A stretch of 64,000 bases of DNA from Escherichia coli (lineage in GTDB: Bacteria > Pseudomonadota > Gammaproteobacteria > Enterobacterales > Enterobacteriaceae): NCBI RefSeq assembly GCF_048403405.1, contig NZ_CP183129.1; one strand, 5' to 3'. Positions 2,696-35,094 of the stretch are shown one piece after another. Made by a program: the position numbers and the translations under genes. Below the pieces are notes generated by a model. The model saw only the letters and a list, made by a program, of their open reading frames with translations, made no database searches and was not told the origin of the DNA. Within the stretch, counting starts at the first letter, position 1. Every line of letters begins with the position of its first letter.

Positions 2696-3589
2696 ATGAA
2701 TATTGAACTTCGTCATCTGCGTTACTTTGTTGCGGTTGCAGAAGAGCTGCATTTCGGGCGCGCCGCTGCCCGCCTGAATATTTCGCAACCACCGCTAAGT
2801 CAACAGATTCAGGCGCTGGAGCAACAAATTGGTGCCCGACTGCTGGCACGGACCAATCGCAGTGTATTGCTGACGGCAGCAGGAAAACAGTTTCTTGTAG
2901 ATAGTCGGCAAATCCTGTCTATGGTGGATGATGCTGCCGCTCGCGCTGAAAGACTGCATCAGGGTGAAGCGGGGGAGTTGCGCATTGGTTTTACTTCGTC
3001 CGCTCCTTTTATTCGGGCGGTGTCCGATACGTTATCGCTGTTTCGCCGTGATTATCCCGATGTCCATTTACAAACCCGCGAAATGAACACTCGCGAGCAA
3101 ATCGCTCCGCTCATTGAAGGAACGCTGGATATGGGATTGCTGCGTAACACAGCGTTACCGGAGACGCTTGAACACGCAGTCATCGTCCATGAACCGCTTA
3201 TGGCGATGATCCCGCACGATCATCCCCTGGCAAATAACCCGAGTGTAACGCTGGCTGAACTGGCGAAAGAACCCTTTGTCTTTTTTGATCCGCACGTAGG
3301 GACAGGGCTGTATGACGATATTCTCGGGCTGATGCGACGTTACAATTTGACGCCCGTCATCACTCAGGAGGTGGGTGAGGCAATGACCATCATCGGTCTG
3401 GTTTCCGCTGGTCTGGGTGTTTCAATTTTGCCTGCGTCATTTAAACGTGTTCAGCTCAACGAAATGCGCTGGGTGCCGATTGCTGAAGAGGATGCGGTTT
3501 CTGAAATGTGGTTGGTCTGGCCGAAACACCATGAACAAAGTCCGGCTGCGCGTAACTTTCGTATTCATCTGCTGAATGCTCTCAGGTGA
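2696..3589 (+). CDS. ynfL: LysR-family transcriptional regulator
   Basis: N-terminal HTH MNIELRHLRYFVAVAEELHFGRAAARLNISQPPLSQQIQALE is the canonical LysR signature; divergent from ynfM. Confidence 0.88.
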   Translation: MNIELRHLRYFVAVAEELHFGRAAARLNISQPPLSQQIQALEQQIGARLLARTNRSVLLTAAGKQFLVDSRQILSMVDDAAARAERLHQGEAGELRIGFTSSAPFIRAVSDTLSLFRRDYPDVHLQTREMNTREQIAPLIEGTLDMGLLRNTALPETLEHAVIVHEPLMAMIPHDHPLANNPSVTLAELAKEPFVFFDPHVGTGLYDDILGLMRRYNLTPVITQEVGEAMTIIGLVSAGLGVSILPASFKRVQLNEMRWVPIAEEDAVSEMWLVWPKHHEQSPAARNFRIHLLNALR

Positions 3590-23689: not shown

Positions 23690-23782
23690 TTTGTTTTAAC
23701 CTCATGACAGATTTAAGGATGAACAAATCCCTGCCATTGCTGGAATATAAGAATGAAACCGGATATTTATTACGGAACTGTT

Positions 23783-23974
23783 TTAAAGACCTGCCGGGAT
23801 TTCGATATTATCCTGGTGAATAACTTTATCGACCGGGTAACAGTTACCGGGAATTTTCTGTTCGGTTGCTGCAGTCATACACTCCTGCATTGTCCTGTGA
23901 ACACTGACTGCAATATCAACTGGCACTCCGGAAACAAGAAAAACTGTCAGAACAAGCGCAAATGCTGAATTCAT
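23783..23974 (-). CDS. ydfD: small membrane-targeted lysis/toxic protein
   Basis: 63 aa from MNSAFALVLTVFLVSGVPVDIAVSVH..., N-terminal hydrophobic segment; directly downstream of dicB. Confidence 0.7.
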   Translation of the reverse strand: MNSAFALVLTVFLVSGVPVDIAVSVHRTMQECMTAATEQKIPGNCYPVDKVIHQDNIEIPAGL

Positions 23975-24159
23975 TGTGCACATCCTTTTGGCATCAGACG
24001 TAAACGAGCCAGCATTGAAACAATGCATATTTTATTTAATAGCTCCCGTTCTTGTTTTCTCTTGTTAATGGCATCTTCAGTAAATACAGGGTTACTGATA
24101 GTGACACCAATTTCAAAACAACCTTCAGACGTATTAACGTTTGGTAATAACGTTTTCAT
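23971..24159 (-). CDS. dicB: cell-division inhibitor DicB (MinC-dependent FtsZ-ring inhibitor)
   Basis: 62 aa, MKTLLPNVNTSEGCFEIGVTISNPVFTEDAINKRKQERELLNKICIVSMLARLRLMPKGCAQ; immediately downstream of dicF. Confidence 0.8.
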   Translation of the reverse strand: MKTLLPNVNTSEGCFEIGVTISNPVFTEDAINKRKQERELLNKICIVSMLARLRLMPKGCAQ

Positions 24160-24333
24160 TATCGCGTCCTCAACAATGAATTTTGTGATGCAGTGCCTGG
24201 TGCCTCCAGGTGACGTTAACCAGTTAACAATTAACGTCGGATACAGAGAATCCACCCATAACACTGTTTTTGGTTTTAACTGTTCCGCGTGCGCTTAGCC
24301 GCATTCACCGCATCACAAAATTCACTTTAAAAA

Positions 24334-24386
24334 CGGCGGCAGAGCAGTCACGGAGTAAAACTGATACCGCCAAACGTCACCAGAAA
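24334..24386 (-). ncRNA. dicF: DicF small regulatory RNA (antisense inhibitor of ftsZ mRNA)
   Basis: Minus strand reads ...UUUCUGGUGACGUUUGGCGGUAUCAGUUUUACUCCGUGACUGCUCUGCCGCCG followed by a U tract, matching my recollection of the 53-nt DicF sequence except at the last two bases. Confidence 0.8.
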
Positions 24387-24663
24387 ATTGATAACAGAGG
24401 GCGTTGCAGCGGGGTTGTCACTTAAGCGTATGGTCAACCTGACAACTCGGTGTCCTCAACGGGGAAGGAATAACCCCGCCATACTTACCGCCGCGCCATT
24501 TTGCGGGTTGCCACAACCGGAAGCGCACGGTCGAATTAAATTTAACGACACCGTACAGTGAGACGAACTTCGCCGTGCGCTTTCGTGTTGTGTGCCTGCT
24601 TTTAACCACGTCAGGCGAGGTGGTATCCTTAAAATCACCACAGTTTTAAGGATTCATTAAGCA

Positions 24664-24984
24664 ATGTCGCAACCACCAATAAATCCGCTTAAGAACATGA
24701 AAATTGATTACTGGTATAAAGCGCTTACAGTTGTTGGCGCTGCGTTGTTTGTCTTTAATGGAACGTCTTTTTTTGACAGATATCCCGTTGTTCCATTGGG
24801 TTTTTTGTCCTCCGGCATCTTTTTTATTGGTTTGGGGGAGTGGATTAATCACCCTCTCAAAGTGAGATTTATTGGTCCTGGAGTTTGGACTCGTGGATAT
24901 AATCGTTCTTCGTGCGCACTCGGTATCATCTTCGACATACTTGGTTGTTTCCTGATTGTTACAGGAGTCGTCAAGTTCTTCTGA
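24664..24984 (+). CDS. hypothetical small membrane protein (3 predicted TM helices)
   Basis: ATG preceded by AAGGA at -8; hydrophobic segments YKALTVVGAALFVF, GFLSSGIFFIGLGEWI, ALGIIFDILGCFLIVTGVV. Overlaps a long minus-strand ORF, so the assignment is ambiguous. Confidence 0.35.
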   Translation: MSQPPINPLKNMKIDYWYKALTVVGAALFVFNGTSFFDRYPVVPLGFLSSGIFFIGLGEWINHPLKVRFIGPGVWTRGYNRSSCALGIIFDILGCFLIVTGVVKFF

Positions 24985-24989
24985 TGTAA

Positions 24990-25221
24990 AACCGCAAATG
25001 GGGCACGTAACGGGAATTTTGAAAAGCGTTTCTCCGGGTTCCAGAACAAAATTTTCTGCGGTCTGATTTTGCTTCTCATATTTGTGCTCCGCGTCATTGT
25101 GAGAGCACATTCTTATTCTGAGTGCCTGTTTAAACTCACTGAAGCTGAGAGCTTCTTCGCCTTCGGCAAGGCCTTCGAAGTATTCTTCGTAAGCCTTTTC
25201 CATGATTGTGTCGAAATCCAT
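24990..25221 (-). CDS. hypothetical acidic early protein with CxxC motif (ydfB/ydfC position); 3' boundary uncertain
   Basis: N-terminal part of minus ORF 24646..25263: MDFDTIMEKAYEEYFEGLAEGEE...TCPICGF looks protein-like; the remainder of the ORF is antisense to the plus-strand membrane ORF and looks spurious. Confidence 0.3.
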
Positions 25222-25222
25222 A

Positions 25223-25378
25223 TCACTCACCTGAGTTTCTTTCCAGCCAGCGACGGGCACCATTTTCGGTTTTAAACGTTTTGCTTTTGGTATACGTCAT
25301 CGCGGTGAACGTGCCGTCCTGGTTGGGGAACACGCCACATACCAGAGATTCGCTGTTGCCAAGATCGATAGTATCCAT
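25223..25378 (-). CDS. hypothetical small early protein (ydfA-like, 51 aa)
   Basis: Internal Met of ORF 25223..25432: MDTIDLGNSESLVCGVFPNQDGTFTAMTYTKSKTFKTENGARRWLERNSGE; first gene downstream of dicA, as ydfA is in Qin. Confidence 0.4.
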   Translation of the reverse strand: MDTIDLGNSESLVCGVFPNQDGTFTAMTYTKSKTFKTENGARRWLERNSGE

Positions 25379-25491
25379 GCTGACCTCATTTCCCCTTAAC
25401 GCCGGGGTCGCGGAACTGTTTGCTGAGAACACCGTGCGGTGTCTTGATGGAAAGTAATTTAGAATAACCTAACATGAGAGGCAAGTGTTTT

Positions 25492-25511
25492 TTGTTAGAT
25501 TGATCTAACAA
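25492..25511. promoter_or_regulatory. candidate operator (OL-like) - near-perfect palindrome TTGTTAGATTGATCTAACAA
   Basis: 8-bp inverted arms TTGTTAGA/TCTAACAA just downstream of dicA; the TTAGA...TCTAA half-site recurs in the dicA-dicC intergenic region. Confidence 0.5.
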
Positions 25512-25546
25512 AAAGAGTGGGCGCAACTAATCACTTGAAAAGAATG

Positions 25547-25954
25547 TTATTTTATTGATTTATTTTTACGCGCTTTAAGCATTTCTTCGAAGAGTTTGTT
25601 GAAGTTTTCTACTCTTGCGCGCATTTCAGACAGCAAGGCTTCCTGCTCGGAAGATGGAAGAGCATCGAATAATTCGATCAATTCTTTGTGGTTGGGAGTT
25701 AGCTCTGTTTCCACATGAAGTTCTTGTGCAGGCACTGGTGCCTTGTCTTCGTCACCAAACATTAGCCATGTAGGTGAGCACTTCAGAGCATCCGCTAAAG
25801 CAAACAATCGTTTTCCGACTGGCTGGGTTTCGTCTCTTTCCCATTGTGAAATTGTGACGTGAGCAACTCCAGCGAGGCGCGCAGCTTCTCGTTGTGTTAA
25901 GCGTAATTCTTTTCGTCGCGCCAGAACTCGCTGGCCTAGGGTTCTTGTATCCAT
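25547..25954 (-). CDS. dicA: immunity repressor, HTH_XRE family (DicA-like)
   Basis: 135 aa; HTH LTQREAARLAGVAHVTISQWERDETQP; divergent from a Cro-like gene. Confidence 0.75.
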   Translation of the reverse strand: MDTRTLGQRVLARRKELRLTQREAARLAGVAHVTISQWERDETQPVGKRLFALADALKCSPTWLMFGDEDKAPVPAQELHVETELTPNHKELIELFDALPSSEQEALLSEMRARVENFNKLFEEMLKARKNKSIK

Positions 25955-26025: not shown

Positions 26026-26034
26026 GGGGCTTTG

Positions 26035-26262
26035 ATGCTTAAAGTTGACGCAATTACTTTTTTTGGCAGCAAAACAAAGCTTGCCAATGCCGCAGGAGTG
26101 AGACTGGCAAGTGTTGCTGCTTGGGGGATACTGGTTCCTGAAGGTCGCGCGATGCGTCTACAGGAGGCATCTGGCGGGGAGCTTCAGTATGATCCCAAAG
26201 TTTATGACGAATATCGTAAGACGAAGCGGGCGGGGCGGTTGAACAATGAAAATCACTCCTGA
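26035..26262 (+). CDS. dicC: Cro-like small HTH regulator (DicC-like)
   Basis: About 76 aa, HTH KTKLANAAGVRLASVAAWG; good RBS (AGAGGGGGC) before the ATG. Confidence 0.7.
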   Translation: MLKVDAITFFGSKTKLANAAGVRLASVAAWGILVPEGRAMRLQEASGGELQYDPKVYDEYRKTKRAGRLNNENHS

Positions 26263-26767
26263 ACAGGCTCGTGAGGCTCTGGATGCCTGGATATGTCGAC
26301 CAGGAATGACACAGGAGCAGGCGACGATATTAATCACTGAAGCATTCTGGGCTTTGAAAGAGCGCCCGAACATCGATGTTCAGCGTGTCACATATGAAGG
26401 TGGCGCGGTTGATCAGCGAGCGCTTAGCGTTAATCGAGTGAAGATATTCGAACGCTGGAAGGCTATCGACACCAGGGATAAGCGTGAAAAGTTCACAGCG
26501 CTAGTGCCTGCAATTATGGAGGCTATCCGGATTAGTGATTTCAGGTTGTATCGTGAGATCAGTGATGGAAAAAGTATTACGTACATGATCGCCGGGTTAA
26601 ATAAAGAATATGGCGATGTGGTGGAATCCGGACTGCTTTTTGCAGATCCTGCCGTTGTAGATCGTGAAACTGACGAACTTATAGAAAAAGCAATTGCTTT
26701 CAAGCTTGCGTATCGACAGCAATACCAACAAAAAGCTGGATGGAATTATGAGTCTTCTTTTTGCTGA
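26246..26767 (+). CDS. hypothetical early protein (cII/YdaT-like position)
   Basis: 173-aa ORF between the cro-like and replication genes; no recognisable catalytic motif. Confidence 0.5.
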   Translation: MKITPEQAREALDAWICRPGMTQEQATILITEAFWALKERPNIDVQRVTYEGGAVDQRALSVNRVKIFERWKAIDTRDKREKFTALVPAIMEAIRISDFRLYREISDGKSITYMIAGLNKEYGDVVESGLLFADPAVVDRETDELIEKAIAFKLAYRQQYQQKAGWNYESSFC

Positions 26768-34430: not shown

Positions 34431-34488
34431 TTATCTGCTTTAAATATATTATTAAAATATAAAAAATACTTGTTACTAATAAAATCAA

Positions 34489-34659
34489 TCAGGCTACAGC
34501 TTTAAGATTTGTCTGGAATACTTTGTTGCAATGAGGGCAGATCAAAAGGGCACCTTTTTGTACTCTTGAAAAACTGTGTTCTGACTCTTGGGTGCAGTTT
34601 GGGCAGGAACATTTAACGAGATAATTACGGCGTGATTTTGAGTCTTTACGTTCTGACAT
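34489..34659 (-). CDS. small C4 zinc-ribbon protein
   Basis: 56 aa from MSERKDSKSRRNYLVKCSCPNCTQESEHSFSRVQKGALLICPHCNKVFQTNLKAVA; strong RBS (AGGAAAAG) before this Met. Confidence 0.5.
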   Translation of the reverse strand: MSERKDSKSRRNYLVKCSCPNCTQESEHSFSRVQKGALLICPHCNKVFQTNLKAVA

Positions 34660-34878
34660 AGGCTTTTCCTGTATAAATGGCCGTATACAGTACACTAAAT
34701 ATGAAAACATTTCTCGTATTATTATTTTATATGTGACTTTCTTTCAAAATAATTACCCACATTTTTAATGTGTATGTTTTTTTAGCGCCGTTGAGAACAA
34801 CGTGTGCTGTCAAAACTACCCCGTAGACTCCGATCTTTTCAAACATATTGCACCATCCGTGTACATCGGGGTGAGGAT

Positions 34879-35094
34879 ATGAAATCAATGGATAAGTTAA
34901 CAACAGGTGTTGCCTATGGCACATCGGCGGGTAATGCTGGTTTCTGGGCATTGCAGTTACTCGATAAAGTAACTCCGTCACAGTGGGCTGCAATCGGTGT
35001 GCTGGGTAGCCTGGTTTTTGGCCTGCTGACGTATCTGACAAATCTTTATTTCAAGATTAAAGAAGACAGGCGTAAGGCTGCGAGAGGAGAGTAA
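34879..35094 (+). CDS. essQ: class II pinholin (phage 21 S-like) with dual-start motif
   Basis: [71 protein letters not shown]; two TM helices; Met1/Met4 dual start. Confidence 0.85.

Follow-up and report, generated by a model that had tools for sequence, protein, structure and literature searches.

Evidence for a conserved antisense overlapping gene pair in the dicB operon of an Escherichia coli prophage

Introduction

Can the same few hundred base pairs of prophage DNA be read as protein on both strands? This question is raised by a locus in a 64,000-nucleotide (nt) stretch of an Escherichia coli genome (contig NZ_CP183129.1, assembly GCF_048403405.1; this whole stretch is called the window throughout), in which the early-left (dicB) operon of a Qin/Rac-type prophage runs along the minus strand. 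An original prediction, made from the letters and a list of open reading frames (ORFs), had placed the locus between dicA and dicF and described a 205-amino-acid (aa) minus-strand ORF overlapped across 24664-24984 by a 106-aa plus-strand ORF. Both ORFs are present as described, and the locus does lie between a DicA-like gene and the DicF small RNA (Table 1). Two explanations had been offered: either the plus-strand membrane-protein gene is real and the tail of the minus ORF is a read-through artefact, or a frameshift has fused small early genes. Our comparative analysis favours a third one, namely that both strands are likely to be coding and form a conserved antisense overlapping gene pair. 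The two partners are referred to here as the membrane gene (plus strand) and gene X (minus strand).

Results

A small inner-membrane protein with three helices is encoded by a self-contained gene on the plus strand. Database searches returned 60 relatives of its product, the full-length ones (100-111 aa) at 34-58% identity, and these include proteins from Yersinia, Herminiimonas, Reinekea and many metagenomes. In the family, whose alignment comprised 26 members, the motifs YWYKA and G.GEW.NHP are invariant, and all invariant residues (Y16, W17, Y18, K19, A20, G56, G58, E59, W60, N62, H63, P64, G87 and G94) are found in the window protein. Differences between related loci (numbered with the prefix L) were counted by plus codon position and amounted to 11/7/35 between the window and L010 and to 14/8/56 between L070 and L090. 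Codon changes in three comparisons were synonymous/nonsynonymous in ratios of 49/17, 41/18 and 30/17 in the plus frame, and the same changes read in the minus frame gave 5/61, 6/53 and 5/42. These substitution patterns show that the membrane gene is under purifying selection.

The AlphaFold model of the membrane protein consists of three long helices and a hairpin (predicted local distance difference test, pLDDT, 85.9; predicted template modelling score, pTM, 0.72). No match to its sequence was found in Pfam, PHROG, NCBIfam, PADLOC or the PDB sequences, and none to its fold in BFVD or PDB at E <= 0.001; in the same family and fold searches, no homology to SieB was observed. A Shine-Dalgarno sequence, AAGGA at 24648-24652, is located 11 nt ahead of the ATG, and a GGAT element at the same distance is conserved in related loci. 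The good ribosome-binding site noted in the original prediction is thus present but only moderate in strength, while its claim that the plus-strand gene is real is borne out by the homologues, the third-position substitutions and the fold model. A type I toxin-antitoxin system was considered from the antisense layout and the 33-aa single-helix remnants described below; with 106 aa, however, the membrane protein exceeds the typical toxins of this type (less than about 60 aa).

The minus frame opposite this gene is free of stops. Since the two frames are codon-aligned (both starts at position 1 modulo 3), a stop in the minus frame requires a TTA, CTA or TCA codon in the membrane gene. No such codon is found among the 10 leucine and 6 serine codons of the window gene, the chance of which, for the window alone, is 0.07 with the codon usage of K-12 and 0.009 with local usage. 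Related loci were collected by looking up exact proteins and by scanning viral contigs and genomes; the expected number of stops was derived from the codon usage of neighbouring ORFs, control ORFs were picked mechanically, and the independence of lineages was judged by third-position identity and not by a tree. Sixteen diverged phage lineages have no antisense stop at all, versus 1.4-5.2 expected per gene. They form 12 clusters, between which third-position identity is 25-54%, so that their synonymous choices are essentially independent, and the joint probability, calculated conservatively from the least significant member of each cluster, is about 1e-21. In the local control ORFs, the three codons account for 5-59% of leucine and 14-28% of serine codons. 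The leucine codons of the membrane gene are CTT, TTG and CTC rather than the optimal CTG, which argues against an expression-driven codon bias as the reason for stop avoidance.

The open frame is associated with the N-terminal motif of X that is described below (Fisher p = 4.5e-5): 12 relatives of the membrane gene that lack the motif carry 2-17 TTA, CTA or TCA codons, and four others, three of them GC-rich, carry none. The stop-bearing relatives come from Herminiimonas, Reinekea, Pseudomonas, Salinimonas, Burkholderia, Desulfobacterota, two metagenome contigs (one of them viral) and phage Bcep176, for which the stop count was not tallied. As a control, lambda sieB has 9 stops in the codon-aligned antisense frame. 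These codon counts show that the minus frame is protected from stops by selection. The suggestion that the minus tail is a read-through artefact is contradicted by the absence of stops in 12 independent lineages, by ORFs of about 150-160 aa with ribosome-binding sites of their own, and by the 127 protein clusters reported below.

Gene X occurs in two settings. In clade 1, to which the window belongs, it is located in the early-left operon beside the repressor, while clade 2 has it in the early-right operon, packed between cro and cII so that starts and stops abut. In L089, for example, cro has its stop at 3455 and X its ATG at 3453, and the X stop at 2974 is followed by the next ATG at 2969. 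Phage mEp390 annotates X, again between cro and cII, as gp39. In all nine of the examined prophage or phage neighbourhoods that have an open partner ORF, the membrane gene lies beside the repressor and points against the early operon.

Residues 1-93 of the 205-aa ORF are outside the overlap and residues 94-205 are antisense to the membrane gene. The earlier statement that the ORF resembles a protein only over its first ~90 codons was accurate, as residues 94-205 are hydrophilic (grand average of hydropathy -1.11; rich in N, K, R and S) and predicted to be disordered. Just outside the overlap, all clade-1 lineages have a conserved motif (Table 1), which takes forms such as PGEI.CRIPVVCPVCGF, GEDICFIPTECPICGF and NEEIFSIPIECPICGF in lineages other than that of the window. 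Its DNA differs by changes that are synonymous in the minus frame (ATT/ATC/ATA, CCC/CCA/CCT, TGC/TGT, GGT/GGA, TTT/TTC), and the N-terminal differences sum to 139/110/204 by minus codon position. Clade 2 has an alignable motif, L..LE...PGSV..D....VTLIGW. The changes in this region show that the N-terminal domain of X, outside the overlap, is under amino-acid selection. The window ORF has the features by which X was recognized, that is PGE/PGS...CPxCG[FC] or TLIGW, a stop-free linker and a C-terminal FVPV...R[IV]xH helix, and phrog_35040 matches X in both clades. No zinc ribbon was found, as clade 1 has a single CPxCG knuckle and clade 2 has no cysteine at these positions; the AlphaFold confidence at the CPxCG region is 57-66.

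In most lineages, X starts at an ATG with a ribosome-binding site and encodes 149-164 aa. The exact 205-aa protein is confined to Escherichia. Homology over a full-length 205-aa minus protein, which the original prediction had named as the observation that would overturn its doubts, is therefore not what is conserved; it is the embedded frame of about 150 aa that is conserved as an open frame, and the sequence of the overlap is not. A profile built from 15 minus ORFs was searched against 1.84 billion representative proteins and found 127 clusters (50% identity) at E <= 1e-3, 22 of them at E <= 1e-30 and many full-length with 145-165 aa. Family and structure searches of the minus protein in Pfam, PHROGs, NCBIfam, PADLOC, PDB and BFVD gave nothing informative on function. 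Within E. coli, the arrangement is widespread: at least 80% of a 1261-bp query is covered in 787 of 5426 complete genomes (about 15%), mostly with both frames intact, and an identical module is present in the isolated phage HannyBb.

Two diverged short forms of X (80-81 aa; L114:2592-2837 and L115:3001-3243), both between cro and cII, consist only of the N-terminal domain and the C-terminal helix. Opposite them lies an intact 33-codon mini-ORF (MENPLSKLALDYWYKVLIVAGTALIIFGIIKLF), in which a clean in-frame internal deletion joins the two ends of the membrane protein; it may be a derived relic, or it may encode a functional peptide with a single helix. Both short forms survive without a full membrane gene, so that X can persist beyond its antisense partner and can do without its middle part.

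The long minus ORF of the window proved to be a chimera. BLAST against the Qin prophage of K-12 aligned 25121-25665 (the 3' end of dicA, ydfA and codons 1-34 of ydfB) at 85% and 23700-24603 (from upstream of dicF through ydfD) at 97%, with an unaligned cassette in between that takes the place of 396 bp of K-12, namely the 3' end of ydfB and ydfC. The alignment shows that YdfB residues 1-34 were joined in frame to the cassette-borne ORF X via recombination. A frameshift origin was rejected, since the alignment of both flanks to K-12 is gap-free and what lies between them is a replacement. The proposed fusion of small early genes thus exists, although its cause is recombination of a 517-bp cassette and not a frameshift, and the comparison with ydfB/ydfC of K-12 that had been recommended finds YdfB residues 1-34 in common and the rest replaced by the cassette. 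Full-length similarity to YdfB (K-12 b1572, 42 aa) was not observed, the C-terminus SSSAKSNG not being shared. Residues 1-48 of the ydfB-fused protein match phrog_2061, and the Prokaryotic Genome Annotation Pipeline (PGAP) labels the ydfB part, in a 99.9% identical genome, as an incomplete pseudogene with a 'missing C-terminus'. K-12 Qin has ydfB/ydfC in the same operon and position, and neither the membrane gene nor X.

Three starts are available to the minus ORF, ATG 25263 (205 aa), the ydfB ATG at 25221 (191 aa) and the cassette's own ATG at 25110 (154 aa). The second is the most plausible because it lies 1 nt past the ydfA stop and is preceded by an AGGTGA ribosome-binding site. ATG 25263, which overlaps ydfA and has no visible ribosome-binding site, appears less plausible. 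In a sister arrangement (L061:1020-1856; also P0067, P0069 and P0071), X has no stop and continues for about 40 codons in frame into YdfC, and gene callers give proteins of 245-271 aa for this read-through. Joints of this kind show how the mosaic structure of the dicB operon repeatedly yields chimeric ORF calls.

Three elements upstream of the membrane gene, an inverted repeat, an extended -10-like sequence and a TAAAAT (24594-24635; Table 1), are conserved in six clade-1 lineages, with equivalents in L061, L010, L003, L008 and L068; the repeat of L068 has one compensatory change from U-A to G-C. The inverted repeat is followed by a conserved GGTGGTATCCT; taken together, the conserved stretch begins just past the stop of the minus ORF and straddles the left cassette junction at 24603/24604. 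These elements may serve the membrane gene as a promoter or operator; alternatively, they could be an RNA processing element of the dicF precursor. With regard to the marks of a moron, presence/absence polymorphism among syntenic phages was found, and an own promoter or terminator was not called by a generic scan.

Relatives of the membrane gene also occur outside the overlap arrangement. In Reinekea (L012:106-2729) and Pseudomonas guineae (L104:541-3877), homologues stand in same-strand arrays of small unannotated ORFs spaced by about 70-190 bp. One of these arrays is near a ParD-like gene, and the layout resembles integron cassette arrays or immunity-gene islands. The non-phage neighbourhoods, which contain small unknown genes and ParD-like, DUF5677, integrase or Fic-like genes, gave no functional clue. 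In Burkholderia phage Bcep176, the homologue gp33 (L098:2884-3348) is annotated with a 39-residue N-terminal extension and a non-ATG start. More than 20 neighbouring genes are on the minus strand and gp33 alone is on the plus strand, which would make it another moron pointing against its operon, here with stops in all antisense frames.

The operon around the pair further contains dicB, ydfD and an exonuclease gene, according to the annotation of the 99.9% identical genome. The helix-turn-helix (HTH) half of the DicA-like repressor differs from that of K-12 dicA, and the repressor probably has a different immunity specificity. It faces Cro/CI-like and YdaT-family genes (26032-26767, plus strand) and not dicC. 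The ydfA ORF, 51 aa in the PGAP form, can be extended to 69 aa from a GTG (25223-25432, minus strand), and phrog_751 matches residues 4-68 of the longer form. In prophages of the L061 and L010 type, the peptide-like stretch 'ATPALRGNEV' from upstream of ydfA and its GAGG ribosome-binding site precede the X start in place of ydfA; this stretch may be a conserved 5' leader and not coding.

Table 1. Positions of the overlapping ORFs, their parts and the surrounding features in the window
Feature	Position	Strand	Basis or remark
Minus ORF, 205 aa	24646-25263	-	ORF list, ATG start
Plus ORF, 106 aa	24664-24984	+	ORF list, ATG start; wholly within the minus ORF
Membrane gene, 106-aa three-helix protein, unnamed family	24664-24984	+	Motifs IDYWYKA and GLGEWINHPL; points against the dicB operon
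Minus ORF within the overlap: about 90 codons of hydrophilic linker without stops, followed by the C-terminal helix	24649-24987	-	Antisense of the membrane gene
C-terminal helix, FIPVINFHVLKRIYWWLRH	24649-24720	-	End of the minus ORF
Conserved N-terminal motif of X, EPGETLFKIPVTCPICGF	24988-25041	-	One CPxCG knuckle; just outside the overlap; in all clade-1 lineages
ydfB codons 1-34, MDFDTIMEKAYEEYFEGLAEGEEALSFSEFKQAL	25120-25221	-	In-frame fusion to the cassette ORF; K-12 BLAST ends at 25121
Mosaic cassette, 517 bp, 42% GC	24604-25120		BLAST against K-12 Qin, interior unaligned
Inverted repeat GCCTG(N13)CAGGC	24594-24616	+	Conserved upstream of the membrane gene
Extended -10-like TGgTATCCT	24621-24629	+	Conserved upstream of the membrane gene
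TAAAAT	24630-24635	+	Conserved upstream of the membrane gene
DicF small RNA	24334-24385	-	Rfam RF00039, 72.5 bits, E = 7.5e-15; downstream in the same operon
ydfA (DUF1391), first gene of the operon	25223-25378	-	PGAP; Pfam PF07151 at 2.2e-27; stop abuts the ydfB ATG
DicA-like HTH repressor of the operon	25547-25954	-	PGAP helix-turn-helix protein; only the 3' part aligns to K-12 dicA

Discussion

The stop-free antisense frame in 12 independent clusters, its association with a conserved N-terminal motif and the purifying selection on the membrane gene argue for two genes at this locus. Several observations weigh against it. The evidence for the pair is comparative, and PGAP annotates neither ORF in the 99.9% identical genome. 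The generic scan called neither a promoter nor a terminator for the plus gene. In a set of 45 near-identical E. coli copies, single-nucleotide polymorphisms (SNPs) in the membrane gene are distributed 7/7/9 over the codon positions, and there are a few nonsense or frameshift alleles affecting one frame or the other; in the cryptic prophages of E. coli, both genes may be drifting now. In the AT-rich locus L067:2992-3675 (35% GC), the motif IPVICPICGFT is kept and the frame opposite the membrane gene has 8 stops; its X has a much longer N-terminal extension and seems truncated to the N-terminal part.

The overlap itself provides further points of this kind. When synonymous codons were redrawn from family usage with TTA, CTA and TCA barred, 80 deep pairs revealed no amino-acid constraint beyond that imposed by the plus gene (identity 0.244 observed versus 0.242 +/- 0.005 simulated), and BLOSUM and same-codon measures match this null as well (z = 0.36-0.68). 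As the observed values equal the null, we abandoned the notion that the sequences of both proteins are constrained throughout the overlap. AlphaFold predicts the 154-aa minus protein to be disordered (pLDDT 53, pTM 0.16), with the exception of a weak hairpin at the motif and a helix at 137-152 (pLDDT about 82), the rest of the overlap part being below 50. Since the linker is unconstrained and predicted to be disordered, any protein function of X rests on its short termini. The conservation of the C-terminal helix cannot be separated from that of the N-terminal motif of the membrane protein; between the two short-form loci, where differences were counted as 6/5/6, there are too few sites. On this evidence, selection acts on the openness of the frame and on the N-terminal domain, possibly also on the C-terminal helix, and not on the linker sequence.

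Explanations in which only one strand matters fare poorly. If the membrane gene alone were functional, the minus frame would be open by chance and the ydfB fragment would simply read through it. The window alone would allow this (a chance of 0.07 or 0.009, depending on the codon usage), as would the overlap without sequence constraint and with predicted disorder, and PGAP does treat the region as a ydfB pseudogene. We nevertheless regard this explanation as very improbable, because the absence of stops recurs in the 12 independent lineages (jointly about 1e-21), the open frame is tied to a conserved and synonymously varying N-terminal motif, homologues without the motif carry 2-17 stops except for four mostly GC-rich copies, and most lineages have a ribosome-binding site and a start of their own. 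The reverse, a real minus gene with the 106-aa plus ORF as its shadow, agrees with the annotations of HannyBb and mEp390 and with phrog_35040, which list the minus ORF only, and is still scarcely credible. The codon-position pattern already refutes it, with substitutions concentrated at the third positions of plus codons and far more synonymous than nonsynonymous changes in the plus frame; moreover, plus homologues in Herminiimonas, Reinekea, Pseudomonas and Desulfobacterota have 5-17 antisense stops, and a confident membrane fold on the plus strand stands against a disordered model on the minus strand.

Two other explanations deserve more weight. In one, the frame would be kept open for ribosomes to cover the early-operon transcript, which would prevent Rho-dependent polarity and keep translational coupling, the product being a mere by-product. 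This would explain why selection acts on openness and not on sequence, and it is in line with the tight start/stop junctions of clade 2 with cro and the next gene, with the Rho-dependent terminator tR1 and its rutA/rutB in the cro-cII slot of lambda, with two C>G-rich stretches in the minus RNA of the window, and with the N-antiterminated pL operon of lambda, which tolerates 9 antisense stops opposite sieB. However, amino-acid selection acts on the N-terminal domain outside the overlap, 80-aa forms persist after deletion of the membrane gene, X of the Qin type ends about 260 nt before dicF and leaves that stretch untranslated anyway, and the minus RNA is not markedly C-rich (C/G 0.7-1.3), the C>G enrichment being weak; we thus consider this explanation rather unlikely. 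Somewhat less unlikely, and not to be dismissed lightly, is the explanation that both ORFs are non-functional relics in this particular E. coli prophage and the ydfB-X fusion a recombination scar. The even SNP distribution (7/7/9), the nonsense and frameshift alleles in both frames, the chimeric N-terminus and a dicBF operon that is silent in laboratory conditions (PMC5069750) point in this direction. Against decay stand the 787 of 5426 complete E. coli genomes with the intact arrangement at >=80% coverage, mostly in both frames, the identical module of the isolated phage HannyBb, and the small number of SNPs, which gives low power to see selection.

X stays open only as long as the membrane gene avoids TTA, CTA and TCA, and selection has enforced this avoidance with the linker sequence left free. 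Stops may be purged because each would remove the C-terminal helix from X and, where X is packed between cro and cII, would also break the translational coupling to the next gene. The membrane gene could be a moron with its own promoter, expressed while the repressor silences the early operon, and its product would probably protect the lysogen by analogy with superinfection exclusion. Upon derepression, the membrane gene would be shut off by convergent transcription and by the translation of X, and the two products, again by analogy, would belong to opposite states of the life cycle. It is conceivable, although on balance doubtful, that the locus is a compact bidirectional life-cycle module recurring in temperate phages of Enterobacteria and beyond, in which a lysogeny-phase membrane protein and a lytic-phase early protein are mutually exclusive through convergent transcription and the synonymous codons of the membrane gene are policed solely for openness of the opposite frame.

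Few long antisense overlapping genes are known from bacteria and their phages, and these are contested; for most candidates, the support comes from ribosome profiling in just one strain. The present pair is supported by purely comparative evidence of unusual strength, that is codon avoidance in a dozen lineages together with internal controls, and it displays an unusual mode of constraint in which a frame is kept open and its sequence is free. The module is located in the immunity region of many temperate phages and bears on the expression of dicF and dicB in strains that carry the cassette. Should the membrane protein turn out to act in exclusion or defence, with X as its lytic counterpart, the locus would be a simple model of how opposite life-cycle functions are coupled by antisense packing; if the bidirectional-module reading is true, selection would act on the integrity of a reading frame without acting on the encoded sequence. 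In the literature covered, which did not include the supplementary ORF lists of the EDL933 overlapping-gene studies, no description of the pair or of either protein family was found, and both families are effectively undescribed, with pipelines calling one strand, the other or neither.

Among known systems, sieB of lambda and P22, a superinfection-exclusion moron within the pL operon, is a similar membrane-protein gene, as it lies next to the immunity region and against the early-left operon (in lambda, sieB at 34482-35036 is on the plus strand, and N and ral are on the minus strand). According to the established view, sieB is expressed from the prophage. It is not homologous to the membrane gene (no family match) and encodes 184 aa as compared to 106 aa, and the strand opposite lambda sieB is non-coding, with its 9 stops, whereas the opposite frame here is open and holds a conserved gene.

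The closest precedent is the fully overlapping antisense pair olg1 (sie1)/gene 10 in the lysis-lysogeny control region of Pseudomonas phage Fc02, where olg1/sie1 is expressed in the lysogen and both products exclude superinfecting phages (Ramirez-Sanchez et al. 2023, PMC9936078). Gene 10 is the second gene of the early operon and follows a cro/ner analogue, as X follows cro in clade 2. No relationship between the two pairs was detected, as tblastn of the plus protein matched no Pseudomonas phage, and their properties are reversed: in Fc02, the early-operon product is insoluble and the lysogen product soluble. The Fc02 pair is supported by expression and phenotype data, without a comparative test, and the present pair by comparative evidence. 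A similar layout is also described for noncontiguous operons or excludons, in which an operon is interrupted by an oppositely transcribed gene, for example in an atlas of S. aureus (PMC11034616); mutually exclusive expression would be expected in both cases, but the operon strand opposite the inserted gene is non-coding in those systems, and in our case it is an open, translated-looking ORF.

Finally, antisense genes embedded in E. coli genes, such as nog1, laoB and asa among others, have been reported by the Scherer/Neuhaus laboratory (PMC9927249, PMC5810103, bioRxiv 10.1101/2020.11.18.388249). These are likewise long antiparallel embedded ORFs that annotation pipelines ignore, and they have been argued to be real from expression data. 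They are mostly short, young, strain-restricted and backed by ribosome profiling, whereas the present pair is old and occurs in many diverged phage lineages, with stop-codon avoidance as support and with two partners that both reach about 100-160 aa.

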